DNA of 64,000 nt, taken from IMG/VR virus record IMGVR_UViG_3300025121_000038, positions 16,999 through 80,998 of that record. One strand, given 5' to 3'. A program made the position numbers and the translations under genes. Below, in pieces: positions 2,776 to 62,208 of this stretch. The notes under the pieces are model-generated. The model did not search any database, was not told where the DNA came from, and saw only the letters and a list, made by a program, of their open reading frames with translations. Position 1 is the first letter of the stretch, and the number at the start of each line of letters is the position of its first letter. The stretch comes from a virus.

Positions 2776-2831
2776 ATATACTAGCATACTGAACAATATG
2801 AAGGTAAGCAAAATTTGAGATTTAGTCTAAA

Positions 2832-3092
2832 TTAATTTGACGGACCACATTCTAGTTCGTAGTCTATAATGGCTTGTTGTATTCTGGTGAGATTAACGAA
2901 AGAAATTCTACCCATTTGTTCAGAGGATAAAAAAGCAAAAGCTGTGTTAGCAAAACTAGGGGAGATATGTGTTACACACGTAAAATCTAAAATAATACTT
3001 TGGGATCCAGACAGGAACTTTTCTCTAAAGGTCTTACCGCCGTCTCTGCCCGACAGTCTAGATTTAAACTCAGAGGCAATGTCTATAAGCAA
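2832..3092 (-). CDS. STAS-like (DUF4325-type) small protein
   Basis: LSGRDGG...ILDFTCVTHISPSFANTAF pattern. Confidence 0.6.
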   Translation of the reverse strand: MLIDIASEFKSRLSGRDGGKTFREKFLSGSQSIILDFTCVTHISPSFANTAFAFLSSEQMGRISFVNLTRIQQAIIDYELECGPSN

Positions 3093-4600
3093 TTGTACAC
3101 TCCACTTGTTGAGGGGTTAGAGAGCCTATACCTTTCCATCTTGCGGAATTGTCTTCAATTTCTATTAAACCGGAGTCTCTATACGAAGATAAAGTGTCGT
3201 ATAGTAGGTCTCCTAAAGTGTTGTTGGTCCAAAAGATATGTTTATTATCTCGAAACTCTTGAAATTTATCTTCCGAAGAACTAACACCTTGGAAAATACC
3301 TAGAGTAACTCCTAAATAATAAGCAGCTACATCAAGATCTGTCCAATCCGTAAGATATTCTTTAAGTCTTTTCATAATTTTGAACTCAAAACAAAGACCA
3401 TTGTGGTCCCCTCTATAGCCGTGATGTCAACTATTCTCAAAATCTCTTGAGTGTTATCCATAAACTCTACATTCAAAGATTTAACAAACATCGCCTTTTC
3501 AAAAGTATGCTCAAGATGAGTTTTACACCCTAGGTACCACCATGCGTTTGGGTGTTTCTCATCGTTCTCACTCAAAGTTATGTCATCAGAGTTTGTTTTT
3601 AGCAAAACTCGTTTAAGGATATATTTGTCGGGTACCTTTATATCCTCTCTTGCTTCTGCTTCTTCTATATCTATACCTAGAAGGACTTCCATTCTAGAAT
3701 ATAAGTCATCCATAGAGATGAACATTTTCTTATTTAACGCGTCATGAAATTCTGGATCGTTGTATCTAGGTATATTCATGAATCAAACCTTATATCAAAC
3801 ATCTGTCTATGACTATATTCTCTATAATCTTGTATAACAAGATCAAATTTGTGATTGTGTACTATGGGAATATCCGACCAAAATACTTTTAAATATGCTG
3901 GGTTTGACCGTGGATAATCACTTGATACTACACATGCCAATTTTTCTGGCAGATCCTCACACAAATGCCCTTTAACAAAACCAGCAGAAGAAAATATATT
4001 CCATCCTTCATATAAAAGCTCTTCAAAAGAGAATTTCTTGATACCAGAGTAGGAATTTCTAACCTGGATAGAAGCAGCTTTAGACAAATGGATAGTTTGT
4101 GGAGCTATATTAGAATAGACGACATATATGGTCTATGACAAAAGGCGTACACCGGGTAACATAACACGCATCAACAGGTAGAGTAATTATGGTTTTAGAA
4201 TTTCTATGAATCCAAGGACCTATATTAGAAAAATTACTTCCACAATTCATGGAATTGGTACTCTAGAATCACCCCAACCACCGTGTTCTAAGCCACCCAA
4301 TAAGGGTTTTACGGGCCTGCCTAGTTCTATTAGAACCTTTTCTATTTCTTTATATGCTCTATTTCTATTTGGAAGTACTTTCTCAGGTACAGGTAGAGTT
4401 ATAGTCAAAATACCTATCAACACACTAAGGTTGTCTTTAAGGTCAAAGGCATGGTCCGCGAAGATACCACATAAATCATCAGAAATTTTGAACTCCCCTT
4501 TCCGGTGTAAGTCATCTAACTCACCGAACATTATATCCAGAGCACCCTCTATTAGGGGTTCTGCAAGTATTTTGTTATAAAGTTCTTGAGCTTCTGTCAT
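3070..4600 (-). CDS. run of hypothetical proteins (3070-3375, 3372-3779, 3776-4087, 4247-4600)
   Basis: Co-oriented ORFs, several with ATGA overlaps. Confidence 0.6.
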
Positions 4601-8305: not shown

Positions 8306-9157
8306 ATGCAAAAACAATATATTAAGAGTAGGCGTAAAGATCAAAAAAGAGAGATGCTAACCTACAAAGGTGGATCATGTCAATTATGTAATTACGCGAT
8401 ATGTGCTAGAGCAATGGATTTTCATCACAAAGACCCTACTCAAAAAGACTTCGGAATATGTGGTATGAATAAATCTTGGGAAGAAATTAAGACAGAATTA
8501 GACAAATGTATTTTAGTCTGTAAAAACTGTCACGGAGAAATACACGATGGCCTTCACGACCAATTTAAAATACTCAATGTAAAAGTGCGCTCAAACTATG
8601 CTAATAGAATATATTATTATCGAAAACAATTCAAACACAATTTAGTCCAATACGCGGGTGGGTATTGTGCTATTTGTACTTACAAAAAGAGTTACAGATG
8701 TTTATCTTTTCACCATTTGAACAAATCAACAAAAACATTTGAAATAAATGAAGCTACTCAGAAAACTTTGGAAGAGATAGCAGTAGAACTTGATAAATGT
8801 ATTTTATTATGTCTAAACTGTCACTCTGAGGTACATGACGAAATTTCTGACATAAGCGATGTTAAACCAATAAAAAATCTTGAATATCTCGATATCATAA
8901 AATCTCTCATTCAAAAAGATGAAAAACCATTAATAATAGAAAAATATTATTGTTTAGATTGTAATGTGGAAAAGAAAACATCCGCCGCAAGATGTGTTCC
9001 TTGCAGTCAAAAATACCAAGAGAAAGTGAAATGGCCAGAAATAGAAGAATTGATAGAAATGTTAAAAACAAGTAATAAAGTGTTATTGGCTAAACAACTC
9101 GGTGTTTCAGAAGCTGCTATACGGAAAAGGTTGTCAAAATATATGTTCAATACATGA
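8306..9157 (+). CDS. tandem-domain HNH endonuclease with C-terminal HTH
   Basis: Two CxxC...FHH...CxNCH units; LGVSEAAIRK. Confidence 0.9.
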   Translation: MQKQYIKSRRKDQKREMLTYKGGSCQLCNYAICARAMDFHHKDPTQKDFGICGMNKSWEEIKTELDKCILVCKNCHGEIHDGLHDQFKILNVKVRSNYANRIYYYRKQFKHNLVQYAGGYCAICTYKKSYRCLSFHHLNKSTKTFEINEATQKTLEEIAVELDKCILLCLNCHSEVHDEISDISDVKPIKNLEYLDIIKSLIQKDEKPLIIEKYYCLDCNVEKKTSAARCVPCSQKYQEKVKWPEIEELIEMLKTSNKVLLAKQLGVSEAAIRKRLSKYMFNT

Positions 9158-15946: not shown

Positions 15947-15967
15947 GGGTGCTATGAGAGAGTTGAA
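15947..15967. repeat. 21-bp direct repeat (second copy 16652-16672), the displaced tRNA-His 3' end
   Basis: GGGTGCTATGAGAGAGTTGAA identical at both sites; this copy carries the CCA. Confidence 0.9.
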
Positions 15968-15998
15968 AACTAATTTTCTCTTTATAACTTACCCATTT

Positions 15999-16712
15999 AT
16001 GATAAAAAAATTTACATATGACCAATATAACCAAGCTAAAAGTCTAGATAATCTATTACTAGAATGTCTATTTTGTAAACAAGATTTTCTATGTACAAAA
16101 CGAAATATTAAGCATGCATTACTCAACTCAACAAAAGACAAACGAAAATTCTGTACATTAAAATGTAGCAAAGAATATTTAAAGTCACTAAACTTCATTA
16201 TTTGTTCTTATTGTAACAATAAATCACATAGACAAAAAGCTCTTATAAATGTTGGCAATAATTTTTGTACTCAATCATGTGCGGCAAAATACAATAATGC
16301 ACATAAAACAAAAGGTACTAGAAGATCCAAACTTGAACAATGGTTAGAAATAAAATTACTTGAACTTTATCCAGACTTAGAATTTCACTTCAATAAAACA
16401 GATGCTATAAATGCTGAGCTTGACATATACATACCAAGTCTTAAACTGGCTTTTGAGCTAAATGGTATCTTTCATTATGAACCAATCTATGGTCAAGATA
16501 AATTAGATAAAATTCAATCTAATGATCACAGAAAATTTCAAGCATGTATAGAACATGACATATCCCTTTGTATTATTGATACATCAAATCAACTTTATTT
16601 CAAAGAACAAACATCTAAAAAATATTTAGACATTATAACTAATATAATTGAGGGTGCTATGAGAGAGTTGAACTCTCGTATTCGGATCCACAAACCGACG
16701 TTCTACCGTTGA
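15999..16712 (+). CDS. zinc-finger PD-(D/E)XK (Vsr-like) endonuclease
   Basis: FCxxxC repeats; ELDIYIPSLKLAFELNGIFHY; frame is open from 15954. Confidence 0.85.
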   Translation: MIKKFTYDQYNQAKSLDNLLLECLFCKQDFLCTKRNIKHALLNSTKDKRKFCTLKCSKEYLKSLNFIICSYCNNKSHRQKALINVGNNFCTQSCAAKYNNAHKTKGTRRSKLEQWLEIKLLELYPDLEFHFNKTDAINAELDIYIPSLKLAFELNGIFHYEPIYGQDKLDKIQSNDHRKFQACIEHDISLCIIDTSNQLYFKEQTSKKYLDIITNIIEGAMRELNSRIRIHKPTFYR

Positions 16713-16724
16713 ACTAATAACACC
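16652..16724 (-). tRNA. tRNA-His(GUG)
   Basis: G-1:C73, loop TTGTGGA; CCA not encoded; overlaps the endonuclease 3' end. Confidence 0.88.
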
Positions 16725-16948: not shown

Positions 16949-17024
16949 TGGTGCCCCTCCCCGAATTCGAATCGGGACTTTACAGATTTTAAGTCTGTTG
17001 CCTCTGCCGTTGGGCTAGAAGGGC
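16949..17024 (-). tRNA. tRNA-Leu(UAA), short variable loop
   Basis: ACAGA-CTTAAAA-TCTGT; CCA. Confidence 0.87.
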
Positions 17025-17101
17025 ATATTGTCTTGCTTACTCATTATACAACATACAGGCTTATAAGTGCGAATGGTCTATAAACTTATTCAGCCTATTT
17101 T

Positions 17102-17130
17102 TGGTGGTCCTGGAGAGTATCGATCTCTCG
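17102..17130 (-). pseudogene. orphan tRNA 3' end (Glu-type T loop)
   Basis: GAGAG-ATCGATA-CTCTC-CAGGACC-A-CCA directly after the endonuclease stop. Confidence 0.8.
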
Positions 17131-17820
17131 CTACTGATAATGTATCCATTTATATATCTTCTTAGACTTTATAAGAGTCACAGTACTTCTAGACACTCCG
17201 TATTCAAAAGCTAATTCTTTATGTAATTTATCAGTATGATATATCTCTAATGCTTGTTCTTTCGTTAATTTTAAAGGTTTGCCATCTAGACCATGAGTCC
17301 AAACATCCCCTTTTTCTGACATAATTCTATTCGTATTATACAATCCAAAACAAGACTTTGAACAAAAAGGTAGTACATTATATTTGACATCTCTAGAAAA
17401 AATCTTTTGACAATATGTACATTTAAACTCATGTTTAGGTTTAAAATTATCATATAAAATGTGATAATTTTTTGTTCCAAATTTATTCTTTACATAATCG
17501 AAAGCGAACTGTAAATCTTTTTCACGCAAAACTATTACTGTAAAACCATGATGTTCTGCTACTTTAGTTTTTGCTTCTACCTTCGAAGGAAGTTCATACC
17601 CTTTTATTTCTATTATGGTTTTATAGTCATCAAGTAAAAAATCAGGGACATACTTCAACCCATTATTTTCTAATATGCCAGAAAATCTTGTAAAGTTAAT
17701 ATTATGGTCTAAAGCATATACTACCCAACATAATTCATATGTTGACCCACAATAAATACCTTTATAATAACCATGTTTTGATCTTCCAGATCCTTTTCTA
17801 TACCCACCAATTTGTTTCAT
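17131..17820 (-). CDS. PD-(D/E)XK homing-type endonuclease with C-terminal HTH
   Basis: STYE...YVPDF...IEIKG; LAFEYGVSRSTV. Confidence 0.85.
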   Translation of the reverse strand: MKQIGGYRKGSGRSKHGYYKGIYCGSTYELCWVVYALDHNINFTRFSGILENNGLKYVPDFLLDDYKTIIEIKGYELPSKVEAKTKVAEHHGFTVIVLREKDLQFAFDYVKNKFGTKNYHILYDNFKPKHEFKCTYCQKIFSRDVKYNVLPFCSKSCFGLYNTNRIMSEKGDVWTHGLDGKPLKLTKEQALEIYHTDKLHKELAFEYGVSRSTVTLIKSKKIYKWIHYQ

Positions 17821-17894
17821 TGGTGCTCTCGGAGGGTGTCGATCCCTCGTTACCAGATTGAAAGCCTAGCGTTCTACTGTTGAACTACGAGAGA
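17821..17894 (-). tRNA. tRNA-Glu(UUC)
   Basis: CTAGG-CTTTCAA-TCTGG; U1:C72 mismatch; CCA directly followed by ATG. Confidence 0.82.
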
Positions 17895-17909: not shown

Positions 17910-18014
17910 TAGTGAGTACGGGAGGAATCGAACCTCATTGCACCCTTGCCATCTGTAGGAATCGAACCTACAATTACAGACGTCTCTGTAGTCACCTGAC
18001 TTTCATACTCACTA
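17910..18014 (-). ncRNA. tRNA-like RNA with two T arms
   Basis: 11-bp closing stem; GTAGG-TTCGATT-CCTAC and GAGG-TTCGATT-CCTC. Confidence 0.6.
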
Positions 18015-18018
18015 AAAA

Positions 18019-18192
18019 TGGTGGCGTTTAATGGATGCTACACGCCAAAGTCTAATCATGAACATTAAGGATTCGAACCTCAGTCTCTGAAGAGCGATAA
18101 AGGCCTCCGATGGCTTCGGGATTCGAACCCTCTTTATCGACTTATAACATCAGTGCTCTCCCGTTGAGCTATTTTGTTCATTTTAAAACGCC
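18019..18192 (-). ncRNA. nested tRNA-like RNA with two T loops and terminal ACCA
   Basis: Outer GGCGTTT/AAACGCC-A-CCA; inner cloverleaf with a T-loop module in its anticodon arm. Confidence 0.6.
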
Positions 18193-18539
18193 CCTGCATT
18201 GTTTCAACATAGTTTCTCTCGGGTCAAGAGCTATGCTATGTGTAGATAAAACAATGCTGCATCCAACCCTGCTCTCTGTCAGTCCGGTTTCTCGTGGGTC
18301 ACAAGCTATGCCGGGTTTTACAACAATGAGCTAATACCTACTTAATAAACTCTACTGAGTGGGTTTCAACAAATGACCCTTTATGTATTTTAATACATAA
18401 AGTAGTAAAAGTTGGCCTTGTTAGGGCTCATTTACTCTACACAAATGTTTCTACCTCGTCTAACCTATTATACTACAGTTACATAACTGTAGTATACTCT
18501 AAAATATATAACATATAATAACAAAATATAAGATAAATT

Positions 18540-18925
18540 TGGAGGAAGTTGGTCTTATGAGGACGCGTCCTCCGTTTTTTATTAGTTGCTAACTCTTCTA
18601 AATCTCTACAATGGGTTAGCATTCATTGTAGCGGAAGCATTACTTTCAACAAGCCCTCAGTCACTGTTACACCTTTTACAGTGTCCATCAACGCGTCCTA
18701 AAACGCTCAGACGTACTTTATCAGTACCGTTTTAAGGGCTCTCCAGTTTTTCTTCCGTCGCTCACAAGTGCTTGTCTTTTCCCCGCGTTACTTTGCATTT
18801 CTCGCGATTATTTAAGTCAAAACACTAATTTGCTTTTTTGCCCTTTGGAAGTGGATAATGGCTCGACCCTTTCAGGTATTAGCAACTGGGTCCATTATGC
18901 CGCTTTTGTTCCGCTCTTTACTTCC
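18540..18925 (-). ncRNA. candidate large structured ncRNA ending in CCA (~385 nt)
   Basis: GGAAGT/ACTTCC-T-CCA termini; long-range AGTTGCTAA/TTAGCAACT; many hairpins. Confidence 0.55.
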
Positions 18926-19001
18926 ATCGTTCATATAATACTAACGAACTACTATCAAAGTTAATCAGAGAGATTCTAAATTATTTTAAAATTATCCAAA
19001 A

Positions 19002-19292
19002 TCATTCAGACAAATTCTTGAACCCAGGTAAAAATCGAACCCCCACCGTCGCAACAATAGAAGGTCTCCATACCATGCCACATTTTTGACATGCATGAGT
19101 ATGATGTGCTTTTGTTTCAAACTCACCCGTATCTATATGTCTTTCGCCACATGAAGGACACCATAGCAACATCGGTATAGGCCTGGACAATACAAAGACT
19201 GCCTCTGTAAGGTCTTTTAAAGTAAACAGTACAGGGGCAGTCTTAATAGTTTCTACGCCCTCAATTATCTTGCGCAGATAGTCCTGGTTCAT
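19002..19292 (-). CDS. zinc-binding hypothetical protein
   Basis: CPSC...HHTHACQKC. Confidence 0.7.
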
Positions 19293-20482
19293 ACATTACC
19301 AATATTAGTGATCACCCCAGCCCCAATGGTACGACTACCTTCTCTAACCGCGAAGCGAGAGTTCACCTCAAAGCCAGCTGGTTTATTCAGTTCAACCTTG
19401 ATAGTAGTACGGTCACCTGGGTTGACACACTCTAACCCTTCTGGAAGAGTGATTACCCCAGTAACATCTGTAGTACCGAAATAGAATTGAGGTCTATACC
19501 CACTCTTGAATGGTTTCTCACGACCCCCTTCTTTTGCGGTCAAGGTATAAAACTCAGCCTCGAATTTTGCATTGCTTCTAATAGACCCAGGAGCGGCCAA
19601 AACTTGACCTCTCCGTATCTCGTCTCTCTTAACCCCACGGAGCAACATACCGATGTTCATACCAGCAAGACCTTCCGGTACATCTTTACGGAACATCTGG
19701 ACTCCTGTAACGACTACCTTTCTGGGTTTGCCACCCTCGTCTTCGGTAAGACCTACTATCTCAACCTCGTCTCCGATCTTGACCTTACCACGGTCAATAC
19801 GGCCTGTAGCTACCGTACCACGCCCAGATATTGTAACAACGTCTTCTACCGACATTCGGAACGGAGAGTCCATATCTCTAACAGGCTCTGGAATAGTATT
19901 GTCCAAAGCATCCATCAATTCTGGGATGGATCCGATCCAAGGGCTAGTCCAGTCTCCTGCATTAGCCGCTTCAAGAGCCTTAAGAGCGGATCCTCTCACG
20001 AACTTGACATCAGTATACCCATAGCTCTCGAGGATTTCGTTTGCTTCCATTTCTACGAGAGACAAGAGCTCTTCGTCTTCACAACGATCAACTTTGTTCA
20101 CGAAAACAACGATATGCTTTACCCCTACTTGAGATGCAAGCAATACGTGTTCCTTGGTTTGGGGCTCAGGTCCTTGAGATCCATCGACCAAAAGTATAGC
20201 ACCGTCCATCTGAGCAGCACCCGTGATCATGTTCTTGATGTAGTCAGCATGTCCTGGACAGTCAATATGTGCATAATGTCTGTTCTTTGTTACATACTCT
20301 ACGTGAGCGGTATTGATTGTAATACCACGAGCTTTTTCTTCAGGAGCTTTATCTATTTGATCATAGTTAAGGGCTTGCCCACCATGTTCTTTAGCCTGTA
20401 TCTTTGTGATAGCTGCCGTAAGAGTGGTTTTACCATGGTCGATGTGACCTATACTTCCGACTGTTAACATTACTCTACCCAT
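19289..20482 (-). CDS. tuf: elongation factor Tu with atypical (replacement) N-terminus
   Basis: [26 protein letters not shown]; GGAG before ATG at 20482. Confidence 0.96.
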
Positions 20483-20583
20483 CTTTTTCTCCAAATTTAA
20501 TTTACCACAGAACAACTAACGGATAATAACAATATTCCTTTTATGAAGTACTTCATCGAACCTAAAATTCATGGAGACTTCAT

Positions 20584-21501
20584 TTGCCAAATAACATTTC
20601 TACACGCACTAGGATTTGTCCAAATTGTCAAAACTCATATCTCTTAAATGTGACTATTGACGGAGAACGAATAGCCCTCCACAAACGTAAATATTGCTTA
20701 GATTGTTCTCCTTTTATCAAAGGTAGCAACAAAATAAGTAACCGAAAGACCTTAGAAAAACACAACAAGTCTGAATCTTTTTGCAAAGAATGTAACTCAA
20801 TAAAACCTATAGATCAATTCTATTTTAGGCACAGTGGACTACCCTTGTCTATCTGTAAAAAATGTCATCACGAAGAATCTAAACAACAAACTAAATCTTA
20901 TAAGGAGCAGGCAGTCGCTTATAAAGGCGGATCCTGCGAGCTTTGTAATTATAGCAAATGTTTAGATGCAATGGACTTTCATCACAAAGACCCTACTCAA
21001 AAAGATTTCACTTTTAGTAGAAGATTTCCATGTTTCAAAACAGCTAAACCAGAACTCGATAAATGTATGCTCTTATGTGCCAACTGTCACCGCGAAGAAC
21101 ATCAGCGTATGGCAGACATAGATTTTAAAAATTCTGACCACGGGCAGCTTGACCCATTAGGCCATAGATGTCGTAGATGCAACCTACATAAAACTATAAA
21201 TTCTTTCCCTATAGATAAAGGAATACCAAAACCTTGGTGTAAGTCATGTACTCGTTTATATGGTAGACAAGGTAGAGCAAAAATCAAACAAGAAATTATC
21301 TCCTATAAAGGAGGGGTTTGTGAAATATGCTCCTATAACAAAAACATTGCTGCATTAGATTTACATCACAAAGACCCAACTCAAAAATCTTTTGGCATTG
21401 CCGAAATGAGAGATAAATATCTCTCTGAAATCAAAGATGAGGTAGATAAGTGCATTTTAACCTGTGTAAACTGCCATAGAGAACAACACGTTAAACCTTA
21501 A
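20584..21501 (+). CDS. tandem-domain HNH endonuclease
   Basis: Two YKGGxCExC...HHKDPTQK...CxNCHRE units; related to 8306-9157. Confidence 0.9.
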   Translation: MPNNISTRTRICPNCQNSYLLNVTIDGERIALHKRKYCLDCSPFIKGSNKISNRKTLEKHNKSESFCKECNSIKPIDQFYFRHSGLPLSICKKCHHEESKQQTKSYKEQAVAYKGGSCELCNYSKCLDAMDFHHKDPTQKDFTFSRRFPCFKTAKPELDKCMLLCANCHREEHQRMADIDFKNSDHGQLDPLGHRCRRCNLHKTINSFPIDKGIPKPWCKSCTRLYGRQGRAKIKQEIISYKGGVCEICSYNKNIAALDLHHKDPTQKSFGIAEMRDKYLSEIKDEVDKCILTCVNCHREQHVKP

Positions 21502-21544
21502 TCTCCACGTGTCCTACCGTCCCTGTGTTAACATGAGTCTTCAT
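21491..21544 (-). pseudogene. tuf: stranded original 5' end of tuf
   Basis: AAAGGA, then MKTHVNTGTVGHV, matching the canonical EF-Tu N-terminus. Confidence 0.85.
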
Positions 21545-21632
21545 AAGGTCCTTTCTAGGTTTTTTGATTATGCAAACATTTGGATTCGAACCCTTGACCT
21601 ATTTAGTCATCATACCTATCTCATATGTCTGC

Positions 21633-21711
21633 TGGTGCCGGAAGTGGGGTTCGAACCCACACTGTCCACCTTCTGAAGATGGCGACTCCTTGCCAATTGG
21701 TCTATTCCGGC
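21633..21711 (-). tRNA. tRNA-Leu(CAG), short variable loop
   Basis: CCATC-TTCAGAA-GGTGG; CCA. Confidence 0.86.
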
Positions 21712-21717
21712 ATATAT

Positions 21718-22178
21718 TTATTCTACTGTCGTAACATAAGTACGAACAATACGTTCATATCTCTCAAGCCTTACTAACTTTATTCTGATATTATTTTTCT
21801 CCCCAAATTCGACAGCTCGTTGTTTCAACAATTGTAACACTCTTTGATTTCTTAGAGTAAAGTCTCCTTCATCTTCTGTATCTGAGCTAAAAAGATTGCT
21901 ACATCTTTGCAACCTTCTCCAGTTATAGTACAAACAACAGACCCGTATTCACTATACACATAATCGAGTTCAAATATGGGATCATACTCTTTAGATTCTG
22001 GAAAATGCTTATGCCAGAATTTCTTGGCATCCTTTGCATATTTCTCACATTTCCCATGGTAGTGTTCGCCAACATAACCAGTAAGATATGAGGTCATATC
22101 TCGTTCGAAATTACCAGCATAACTGTCCGTCTCTATGATCAATGCCTGTGATATTTGTTTTGCAAAATTTGATACCAT
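21718..22178 (-). CDS. hypothetical protein split by a frameshift in a T run (about 21889-21893)
   Basis: ORFs 21852-22178 and 21718-21933 join as ...DVAIF/FSSDTED... if one T is added. Confidence 0.55.
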
Positions 22179-22541
22179 TTAATCCTCCATCAGATCATAC
22201 CAGGAAACAATAGGCTGAGCAAAAGCTTTCAAGTTAGACATGTACGTATCTAACTGACCTTTCAATCTAATTCTTTCTTCATCTTCCAATCCAAACTGGA
22301 TTGCGTCTTCTAATGAGTCATGTTCACTAGAAGATCCATTCTCTTGTCAGCCCCATCCAGTATAATCACAACCAGCTCTGACTACACCATATTTGCCATT
22401 CTGAAGACAAAATAGACCTATCCAATTAGGTCCATCATTATCTCCATCTTCTTGAGCTATAGACTCAATGACGTCTTCTCTTGAAAAAGAAGCATATTTG
22501 AAAACTTCTGCCCAATCGGAATCGTCAATATCTAATATCAT
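22179..22541 (-). CDS. 120-aa protein with in-frame UGA (codon 65); candidate selenoprotein
   Basis: ...AGCDYTGWG*QENG... stays open 55 more codons to a TAA abutting the next ATG; 11-bp hairpin begins 13 nt after the UGA. Confidence 0.7.
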
Positions 22542-22550
22542 AAATCCTCC

Positions 22551-22627
22551 TGGTGCCTCTCCTCAGATTTGAACTGAGACTGTGTAGATTTTGAGTCTAC
22601 TGACTCTAACCGTTGGTCTAGAGAGGC
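22551..22627 (-). tRNA. tRNA-Leu(CAA), short variable loop
   Basis: GTAGA-CTCAAAA-TCTAC; CCA. Confidence 0.87.
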
Positions 22628-22823
22628 TTTTAAGGGAATAGGTTATCACCCTTTATGCACGAATCAACCTAGACGTGCTTTCAGAAATTGATTGATCGGA
22701 ACCAATTTCCACAATGTCCCTCGTTCTATCCGATCCTGAGTATTAAACTACATCCGCAACTATGGGCATAATGCCGTGTCTCAAACCGGATGCCAGGATT
22801 TCATACCTGGATTAAGGGCCTAA

Positions 22824-22906
22824 TGCGAGAGGTGGGATTCGAACCCACACGATCTTTCGATCGCCAGCCCCTCAAGCTGGTGCGGCTACCATTACGCCAC
22901 TCTCGC
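22824..22906 (-). tRNA. tRNA-Leu(GAG), long variable arm
   Basis: CCAGC-TTGAGGG-GCTGG; CCA not encoded. Confidence 0.9.
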
Positions 22907-22910
22907 ATAT

Positions 22911-23234
22911 TTATCGTCTGCTGCTTCGAAATCTGGGTCTAGGATCATGAACGTGTGAACCTTTTTTATCCAAAACAGTCACAATAGCTTTTTCTATACA
23001 TACGAAAACACAATCATCACTAACATAGAAACTATATTTTCTATCATAACCATACCGTTCACCAAGATAAATCATGAAAGGAGTGTTATTCAAATATGTT
23101 CTGTCTTCTTTAGACCTTTTATATAATTCAACAGCCACTGCTTTATATACGTCGCCATCAAATTCATCAACCTTTTTTGGAAACCGTTCTTTAAATCGAT
23201 TTAAGGCATGATATCTAAAACTAAAAGACTTCAT
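22911..23234 (-). CDS. hypothetical protein (HALxRFxER motif)
   Basis: YHALNRFKERF...IVTV; a similar motif occurs in 50947-51414. Confidence 0.65.
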   Translation of the reverse strand: MKSFSFRYHALNRFKERFPKKVDEFDGDVYKAVAVELYKRSKEDRTYLNNTPFMIYLGERYGYDRKYSFYVSDDCVFVCIEKAIVTVLDKKGSHVHDPRPRFRSSRR

Positions 23235-23413
23235 TTCAGTCTACCAAGTTTTTAGTGTTCCTTCTACTTTTAATCTTTCATGATCAGACATCTTGTACCA
23301 CAAAACATCCAGTTCATCTAGCAAATCATCTTCCTCTTTTGAATCGATTCCGTTATTCTTTCTACGTATCTCTAAAACTTGTTTTGCTAATGCTAAACAT
23401 GCCTCAACTAACA

Positions 23414-24169
23414 TCATATCTCCACAACGAAGTCAGATATAAAACCTGACTTCTCTTTAGGGTAACCTCGGGGGTTAGACACAATCCTAGTCTGTCCTAA
23501 CATGTAATCATTATGATCATGTATATGACCGTGTATCCATAACTCAGGTTTAAAGGTTTCGATATATGTCTCCATGTTAGAGGCATATGTTGGAGACAAC
23601 TCATCGGATTTCCACCCAGGCTCTAAAGACTTGGCACTTGGAGCATGATGTGTAATAACAACCTTCTTACCTGTATACGAACTATCTATCTGTTTTTCCA
23701 ACCAAGATTTAGAAAATGCATTTATAGCTGCTGTATCTCTTGTCCTAAGTTTCCTAAAGTCTGAACTAACACGTATTTTTCTGTAGTCATTCATTCGATC
23801 TTGAGCGGCAGTATAACTAGAGACCGAAGTACCAAAAAGATCAAAATCTGTCCAAAGGGTACACCCATAAAATCTGGTATTATCAATATCTATGAACTCA
23901 TTCTCTAAAAAGATTACGTTCGAGGTTTTGGACGCAGCCTCTCTCAATTTCTCAGCAAACCTAGGATAAGAGTTACTATAATACTCATGATTACCCGCTA
24001 TGTATAGGACCATCTGATTTGGGAAAGACTCAGATGCCCAGAGAATGCCTCGTATACCCTCAATAGTATCACCCGCCAATATGACCACATCTGCGTCTGT
24101 ATTGACAGGTTTATACCAGTGATTGGTAATCCCTATATGTAAGTCTGACATTATCTGTATCTTCACCAT
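23414..24169 (-). CDS. calcineurin-like metallophosphoesterase
   Basis: SDLH, AGD, GNHE, THH, HGHIH. Confidence 0.92.
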   Translation of the reverse strand: MVKIQIMSDLHIGITNHWYKPVNTDADVVILAGDTIEGIRGILWASESFPNQMVLYIAGNHEYYSNSYPRFAEKLREAASKTSNVIFLENEFIDIDNTRFYGCTLWTDFDLFGTSVSSYTAAQDRMNDYRKIRVSSDFRKLRTRDTAAINAFSKSWLEKQIDSSYTGKKVVITHHAPSAKSLEPGWKSDELSPTYASNMETYIETFKPELWIHGHIHDHNDYMLGQTRIVSNPRGYPKEKSGFISDFVVEI

Positions 24170-45628: not shown

Positions 45629-45704
45629 AGGTGCCCCTGGTGGGTTTTGATCCCACTGCCTTGGTATTTAAAGTACCTCGCTCTTCCAATTGAGCTACAG
45701 GGAC
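45629..45704 (-). tRNA. putative ochre suppressor tRNA (UUA)
   Basis: Full cloverleaf; GGTA-CTTTAAA-TACC; ends A-CCT. Confidence 0.7.
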
Positions 45705-62128: not shown

Positions 62129-62208
62129 TATCTATGAATAGAGGATTTGAACCTCTGACCTCCAGATTGGGGTCCGGCACTCTACCAGACTGAGCTAATT
62201 CATAGATA
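62129..62208 (-). ncRNA. tRNA-like RNA, 11-bp acceptor, 6-nt anticodon loop
   Basis: CCGGA-CCCCAA-TCTGG; canonical D and T arms; no CCA. Confidence 0.6.

Follow-up and report, generated by a model that had tools for sequence, protein, structure and literature searches.

We analysed the tuf gene, encoding elongation factor Tu (EF-Tu), in a window of 64,000 nucleotides (nt) of DNA from a giant phage, the window being the whole stretch of positions 16,999 to 80,998 of IMG/VR virus record IMGVR_UViG_3300025121_000038. The parent record is 81 kb in length, has an estimated completeness of 35% and comes from groundwater metagenomes; it contains a single copy of tuf. This gene is interrupted at its P-loop codons by an insert that contains an HNH endonuclease gene in antisense orientation and that supplies tuf with a new start, the old start being left stranded on the far side of the nuclease gene. 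The arrangement was put forward in an original prediction made from the sequence, and it stands, in that relatives resemble the stranded piece and no ribozyme was found. The window contains 42 tRNA genes as identified by ARAGORN, nearly all of them on the minus strand, and this minus-strand array encloses tuf. The upstream neighbor of the tuf locus is a gene for tRNA-Leu(cag) (21633..21711, minus strand; 49.8 bits with the Rfam tRNA model).

Followed in the direction of tuf, on the minus strand, the locus begins with the stranded old start (21491..21544). A Shine-Dalgarno-like AAAGGA (21554-21549) is followed by an ATG (21544-21542) that opens the reading MKTHVNTGTVGHV. The canonical EF-Tu part of this reading comprises 14 codons (21544-21504), the last being an Asp codon reduced to its first two bases (GA, 21505-21504). 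After the GA the frame reads four unrelated codons (EIKV) and reaches a stop codon at 21493-21491, giving a dead open reading frame (ORF) of 17 codons. Next is the insert of 1065 nt (20439..21503, with no strand assigned to it). Its junction is given here as set in the original prediction and may slide by up to 2 nt, GA being common to both sides. Most of the insert (918 of 1065 nt) is taken up by a plus-strand ORF, antisense to tuf, for a tandem-HNH endonuclease of 305 amino acids with a TTG start (20584..21501). Direct reading of this ORF places its stop codon 2 nt away from the junction with the stranded piece, as had been claimed. A hairpin is predicted in the leader of the nuclease gene (20543..20583, plus strand), its 3' arm containing the Shine-Dalgarno GGAG (20573-20576), and a spacer of approximately 100 nt separates the HNH start from the GGAG and ATG of tuf. 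The tuf 5' end that the insert brings as a replacement (20438..20482, minus strand) has its own GGAG (20492-20489) and ATG (20482-20480), and is joined to the body of the gene at the Asp codon, the C of which is at 20438.

With this replacement 5' end the phage tuf gene is complete (19289..20482, minus strand; 397 amino acids). Its product matches the Pfam families GTP_EFTU (PF00009, E = 2.4e-59), D2 (PF03144, 9.5e-17) and D3 (PF03143, 1.7e-28), all above the cut-offs, and matches solved EF-Tu chains over residues 6-394 with an E-value of 7.4e-164; the P-loop of the current gene is complete and reads GHIDHGKT. When the GA that ends the stranded piece (21504) is joined to the C at 20438, GHVDHGKT is obtained in frame, with 1065 nt lying between the two positions. 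The in-frame join and the size of the insert had been predicted correctly, and the elements on which that prediction was built (the AAAGGA, the upstream ATG, the GA end, the HNH ORF, the GGAG and the new ATG) are all in place.

Contigs from four runs (X1, X3, X5 and X6) of two studies span positions 20225-22600; they contain 0 differences and no indels and bridge both junctions. X1 and X3 may derive from the source sample, and X5 and X6 belong to the other study. The agreement between independent contigs of two studies indicates that the odd N-terminus of the current gene is not an assembly slip. None of the four runs contained a contig joining 21504 to 20438 or an HNH-free form, a result to which we attach little weight because contigs drop rare variants. 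A pattern for the EF-Tu N-terminal block was also run in six frames on 239 sequences, consisting of 238 tuf loci and the window. A second, separate EF-Tu N-terminal block was found in the window only (1 of 239), which argues that the upstream fragment is not a chance look-alike. The split arrangement itself was found in none of the 238 tuf loci.

Comparison with homologues bears on which of the two starts is the older one. Four IMG/VR phage tuf genes begin MKTHVNVGTIGHVDHGKT, the homologue P0129 begins MKIHVNVG, and the closest homologues, at 70-79% identity, all have the form x-K-x-HVNVGTIGHVDHGKT. Among 119 listed tuf homologues, the N-terminal block is strictly canonical in 116, loosely so in 2, and preceded by an extended N-terminus in 1; an uninterrupted canonical N-terminus is present in 118 of the 119, as judged at the protein level and with the nearest allele 79% identical. 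The sequences MGRVML, MLTVG and GSIGH, which are found at the start of the current gene, occur in 0 of the 119. The original prediction had named HNH-free relatives already starting in this way as evidence that would speak against it, and no such MGRVML start was encountered. Judged against these relatives, it is the stranded copy that has the canonical form, and the odd start belongs to the copy in use.

The anomaly of the current gene is confined to its very beginning. The window EF-Tu departs from its 23 closest relatives (70-79% identity) at 9 of the 229 columns that are at least 90% conserved among them. Six of these 9 deviations fall within residues 3-14 (R3, M5, L6, T7, S10 and I14), compared to 3 in the other 218 columns (Fisher p = 2e-7), with no deviation from conserved columns between residues 15 and 63. 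The deviant tract corresponds to 20476-20441, and its last deviant residue precedes the Asp codon, the exact point at which the stranded piece ends. The length of the current N-terminus equals that of the closest relatives. At conserved positions the current copy makes 6 departures out of 11, compared to 2 for the stranded copy (T for V and V for I, read by eye), one of which is also found in the functional relative P0188. We had considered the Val-to-Ile change in the P-loop as a mark of nuclease-linked alleles, and dropped it, Ile being common everywhere: among loci with the motif, the Ile form is found in 18 of 62 from viruses, 33 of 80 from metagenomes and 32 of 80 from genomes.

The two tuf 5' ends nonetheless have features in common. 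They contain a shared block in which 13 of 15 nt are identical, the core of which is the 8-mer ATGTTAAC. In the stranded piece this 8-mer encodes His-Val-Asn; in the current gene it is read one base over, as Met-Leu-Thr. The 8-mer occurs 4 times on the two strands of the window, compared to 4.0 expected from composition, and 2 of the 4 occurrences are at the homologous His-Val-Asn places, for which the per-site probability is 3e-5. In 11 of 188 other tuf loci His-Val-Asn is encoded by CATGTTAAC. Nearer the P-loop, the proximal 20 nt of the two 5' ends are identical at 13 positions, as counted by eye. The simplest reading of these data would be that an ordinary tuf 5' end gave rise to the substitute through a one-base loss and a one-base gain flanking His-Val-Asn, along with substitutions nearer the P-loop. 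The description of this region in the original prediction as a recoded tuf 5' end is thus partly borne out: the segment is supplied by the insert, but it is more than recoded, having the appearance of a canonical end in which His-Val-Asn is read one base off.

The product of the plus-strand ORF matches PHROG 2255 with an E-value of 9.9e-60 in two separate stretches, and matches four more PHROGs that are named HNH endonuclease. It contains the motif Cys-x-x-Cys / His-His / Asn / Cys-x-x-Cys-His / His twice in full, and both copies are invariant in alignments with 8 and 44 homologues. The residues that do not vary in 45 homologues are C118, C121, H133, H134, C168, H169 and H173 in the first domain, and C246, C249, H261, H262, C294, C297, H298 and H302 in the second. 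The closest full-length homologues (P0002-P0004, 46-52% identity) likewise consist of two domains and can be aligned with the protein from its first residue, supporting the TTG start at 20584 over the shorter form given by gene callers. Homologues P0002 and P0003 are listed with Pfam PF01844. Comparison with solved structures gave no relative of the protein by sequence. A predicted model has a mean confidence (predicted local distance difference test, pLDDT) of 89.7, and a Foldseek search with this model gave no match at E <= 0.001. Membership in the HNH family is established by profile and motif.

Nuclease genes of this kind are a regular feature of the surroundings. Homologues are found in 152 cultured-phage records, where they are annotated as HNH endonuclease and where many of them abut tRNA genes. 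Of the 7 real plus-strand ORFs of at least 130 amino acids in the window, 5 belong to HNH or homing-endonuclease families, indicating that the phage is heavily colonised and that antisense orientation is usual here. A paralogous tandem-HNH gene of PHROG 2255, 44% identical to the tuf-associated one, is located at 8306-9157 on the plus strand within the tRNA array. The predicted leader hairpin of the tuf-associated gene has a folding energy of -14.8 kcal/mol (z = -2.68, with 4 of 200 shuffles as good), is built on a perfect 14-nt palindrome (20543-20556, plus strand), and pairs the GGAG of the nuclease gene.

The geometry of the tuf locus, an intact gene followed by a nuclease gene and then by a displaced old end, recurs at tRNA genes of the window, tuf being the instance that involves replacement of the 5' end. 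For tRNA-His (16652-16723), the last 21 nt of the gene are repeated without a mismatch at a distance of 705 nt (region 15947-16723), on the other side of a plus-strand ORF (15954-16712) that resembles homing endonucleases and overlaps the tRNA gene in antisense. For tRNA-Glu(ttc) (17821-17894), a 33-nt copy of the 3' end, with 26 positions identical and CCA included, is found just past an endonuclease-like ORF (17131-17820; region 17095-17894), the ATG of which abuts the tRNA gene. A weaker parallel is provided by a tRNA-Gln gene followed by an HNH gene and a copy in which 16 of 19 nt are identical.

An element of another type is present at nearly the same site in a second huge-phage tuf gene. 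In locus L199 (IMGVR_UViG_3300026521_000471, a 224-kb IMG/VR contig) tuf is interrupted by a group I intron (feature 3577-4015). Exon 1 ends at the P-loop His codon (3637-3639) and exon 2 resumes with Val-Asp-His-Gly-Lys from 4001, leaving between the His and Val codons 361 nt that contain no ORF of 45 or more amino acids. The intron matches the Rfam Intron_gpI model over its full length with a score of 27.1 bits (E = 8.9e-5), the gathering score of this model being 50. As read by eye, GUGCC at 3647-3651 pairs with the final five bases of the exon, the pairing ending in U.G at the 5' splice site, and the intron has a terminal G. Its insertion point is 5 nt from the junction in the window. An ORF upstream of this tuf gene (2937-3494) matched no PHROG or Pfam family, and an Rfam scan of six further tuf loci returned tRNAs and no additional introns. 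By this comparison the P-loop codons of tuf appear to be a recurrent landing place for mobile elements. The intron also gives indirect support to the idea, put forward in the original prediction, that the HNH protein may recognise P-loop-coding DNA; that host tuf genes could be among its targets would be a further supposition, on which none of the present observations bears.

ORFs of the HNH family of the window are found in 13 of 158 tuf loci (16 ORFs). In L209 (IMGVR_UViG_3300032173_000010) tuf is immediately preceded on its own strand by a single-domain PHROG 2255 HNH gene (3504-4060), the TGA stop of which overlaps the GTG start of tuf, and in L025 a PHROG 2255-family ORF lies 173 nt upstream of tuf. 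Two further loci have unusual tuf starts. In L022 (IMGVR_UViG_3300015360_000106, 3882-4100) the tuf gene is without P-loop codons, the match beginning at query residue 18, and a C-terminal fragment of an HNH protein is fused directly upstream on the same strand; this tuf is probably a broken gene left by a nuclease-associated deletion. In L016 (683-1250) the frame of an endonuclease VII-like HNH protein runs in frame into the tuf start region, and a second HNH gene, of the same family as that in the window, is located downstream at 2812-3393.

We consider that the insert represents a free-standing, non-splicing HNH homing cassette in the P-loop codons of phage tuf (GHV/DHGKT), which carries a diverged substitute for the 5' end of the gene, and we would give this reading a probability of roughly 60%. 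From the sequence we infer that such a cassette would cleave its target, spare its carrier and move, in the following manner. The cassette would consist of the antisense nuclease gene, a short divergent control region, and a substitute tuf 5' end made up of a ribosome-binding site, an ATG and 14 codons. EF-Tu would be made from the new start, with the resident start left as the dead 17-codon ORF past the nuclease gene. The tandem HNH protein would cut the uninterrupted tuf of co-infecting relatives somewhere from the His-Val-Asn to the P-loop codons, and the two active sites in one HNH chain could cut both strands. Repair would then copy the 1065 nt from the carrier, the stranded piece serving as the left homology arm and the tuf body as the right one, and the recipient's own tuf start would become the next stranded piece. 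Since the substitute restores a sequence resembling the target at the right junction, we propose that it is kept diverged enough to avoid being cut, the divergence, frame slide included, probably sparing the carrier from its own nuclease. Expression of the nuclease may be kept low by the hairpin that would bury its ribosome-binding site and by antisense transcription from the direction of the tRNA genes and tuf.

Several observations weigh against this reading. We found no uninterrupted allele of the same lineage, the nearest relatives being 79% identical and known as proteins only, so the direction of the event is deduced from fairly distant kin. The 90% cluster of the window tuf contains 1 sequence on 6 contigs, with the protein identical on all 6. 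A metagenome scan with the tuf protein gave relatives of at most 65% identity among the matches listed, a genome scan with P0129 gave only cellular tuf of at most 66%, and scans of IMG/VR with tuf gave no full-length relative above 66%. Simple local alignment of the two tuf starts has low significance (score 20, with 67 of 2000 shuffles as good), and as a result the frame-slide argument leans on position. The Pfam HNH model (PF01844) does not match the window protein, and the fold matches of the predicted model are weak: for the C-terminal domain (residues 228-305) the best ones (VIA) are HNH nucleases, with Cap5 at Z 3.7 (root-mean-square deviation 3.3, 60 residues aligned) and the Gme HNH protein at Z 3.4. 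Population variants of the nuclease on other contigs include K242I and C290G (P0242), the latter at an invariant Cys of the second domain, and some of the population may therefore carry a nuclease that is already in decay.

The distribution of the HNH family also counts against the cassette. The family resides mostly in tRNA arrays, and among the best 80 of 533 IMG/VR loci of the family none has tuf within 3 kb. The nearness of HNH genes to tuf in L209 and L025 may be incidental, since tuf sits in tRNA arrays there. Searches of IMG/VR for a second carrier gave 0 relatives with the HNH protein as query, and 4 and 18 loci, all distant, with P0004 and P0002 respectively, in collections that are incomplete for this lineage. 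Because no second carrier was found, mobility of the cassette as a unit is something that we infer.

The main rival, which we think unlikely, is a one-off, one-sided homing event. After a cut in the recipient's tuf, DNA of a donor with an HNH gene upstream of tuf would have been copied into the gene, the right end being resolved by homology and the left by an illegitimate join at microhomology, and the stranded piece would be a scar. Members of the same HNH family lie directly upstream of tuf in L209 and L025, GA is found on both sides of the left junction, there is one known carrier only, and PMC2988022 describes illegitimate one-sided repair of double-strand breaks at microhomologies in T4 intron homing. 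This event accounts for the stranded piece, but leaves the abrupt edge of the deviant tract and the extreme divergence of the substitute unexplained. A working start taken from a donor would not be expected to depart at 6 of 11 conserved positions or to hold a frame slide, and a co-conversion tract should be able to end anywhere downstream, whereas the deviant residues stop at precisely the point that corresponds to the end of the stranded piece. The HNH stop codon lies 2 nt from the junction, and the same geometry is seen again at the tRNA genes of the window; both observations also speak against a single event of this kind.

A local duplication of approximately 41 nt of the phage's own tuf 5' end, arising as a long target-site duplication or through a slip in repair and followed by drift, would involve neither foreign tuf DNA nor selection for immunity. 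The 13 of 15 nt block common to both copies and the nearly equal distance of both ATGs from the P-loop codons are consistent with it. We regard this duplication as improbable, because it is the copy in use that is the more diverged (6 of 11 conserved positions) and the dead copy that is the more canonical (2 departures), the reverse of what is expected for duplication followed by drift under purifying selection; the identity of just 13 of 20 nt next to the P-loop also argues against it. That the insert is instead an intron with an antisense nuclease gene, such that tuf is translated from the upstream ATG after splicing of the 1065 nt and the inner copy is a relic, is very hard to credit: the 21504/20438 join does restore GHVDHGKT in frame and a true group I intron lies 5 nt away in the tuf of L199, but Rfam searches gave no group I or group II intron at E <= 1 in 18000-24000 or at E <= 10 in 20380-21620, both strands being covered for Intron_gpI, with the same library that recovers the L199 intron, the antisense ORF fills 918 of the 1065 nt, the base ahead of each of the three possible junctions is G, G or A and never the U needed at a group I 5' splice site, and the downstream gene, having its own Shine-Dalgarno sequence, ATG and complete P-loop, needs no splicing. 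On the anatomy only, splicing thus appears to be excluded. We also considered an intein, which is ruled out by the location of the ORF on the opposite strand and by the upstream frame, which stops 4 codons past the junction.

The closest known system is that of the mobile endonuclease ORFs (mORFs) of fungal mitochondria (PMC3630166), which carry a foreign C-terminal piece of the host gene and strand the native one, giving rise to "gene hybrids". Examples are Allomyces macrogynus atp6 and Glomus atp6, atp9, cox2 and nad3. In these mitochondrial genes, as in the phage tuf, an endonuclease ORF lies within a conserved gene, a diverged terminal copy replaces the native end, and the native segment is stranded beyond the ORF and is nearer to the relatives than is the inserted segment. 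The inserted and native pieces of Glomus atp6 have approximately 63.5% nucleotide identity (PMC3630166), compared to the 13 of 20 nt counted here. The described mORFs differ in that the 3' end of the gene is replaced, the ORF is in the sense orientation and often in frame, the nuclease is of the LAGLIDADG or GIY-YIG type, and the setting is mitochondrial. In the window, the nuclease is a tandem HNH encoded in antisense within a phage-borne tuf, and the replaced end is the 5' one, so that a start codon and a ribosome-binding site have to come with the cassette.

There are likenesses to phage systems as well. As with mobE (Aeromonas phage Aeh1 nrdA), mobA (T4 gene 60/39) and seg (gene 43), a free-standing HNH-family nuclease gene without an intron or intein lies in a functionally critical part of a conserved gene. 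In the mobE-type cases both halves of the gene are expressed and must reassemble into one enzyme, whereas in the window the downstream gene is complete by itself, the cassette having supplied a full substitute, and the upstream piece is no longer needed. Hairpins that sequester the ribosome-binding site, and low nuclease expression, are described for phage homing nucleases (PMC2988022), and one such hairpin is predicted here. The targeting of the most conserved codons of an essential-type gene is in common with phage group I introns, including the one in L199 tuf; unlike these introns, the cost of insertion in the window would be met by a substitute gene end and not by a ribozyme. A final comparison is with integrative elements that carry a replacement end for the tRNA or protein gene that they enter, in which the gene is likewise restored and a partial duplicate is found at the far junction. 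End-replacing integrative elements make use of an integrase and att sites. Unlike them, the cassette in the window is without an integrase, and the nuclease gene is its sole cargo.

Selfish nucleases persist in essential genes by means of self-splicing introns, inteins, or split gene pieces that still work. The tuf locus suggests a further solution in phage, in which the nuclease would bring its own copy of the beginning of the gene. If the cassette moves as a unit, this would explain how intron-less nucleases colonise the most conserved codons of a gene, would represent a natural pairing of a nuclease target with a self-immune recoded allele within 36 nt, and would make the P-loop codons of phage tuf a recurrent landing site, an intron being present there in another phage as well. 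A practical consequence is that gene callers will take the odd N-terminus for the native one and overlook the stranded piece. Searches of open-access text gave no report of mobile elements in phage tuf or of an end-replacing nuclease cassette in phage. EF-Tu in huge phages is reported by Al-Shayeb et al. 2020 (PMC7162821), the main text of which contains 0 occurrences of "intron" or "homing". A broader and more tentative proposal, which may well prove wrong, is that huge phages harbor a general class of end-replacing homing cassettes, nuclease genes at the best-conserved sites of translation genes (tuf and tRNA genes), in which an immunised gene end is brought in instead of a ribozyme or intein and the resident end becomes the next homology arm; tuf would then be the first 5'-end example, with the frame-slid His-Val-Asn as the site of recognition or cleavage.

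Two further features of the window were noted. A scan for promoters and terminators was uninformative, with 7 promoter-like sites compared to 7.3 expected. Among the tRNA genes, ARAGORN reported at 45630-45704 and 62131-62205 a tRNA with the anticodon tta, which would read the stop codon TAA, and a tRNA with a two-base anticodon.

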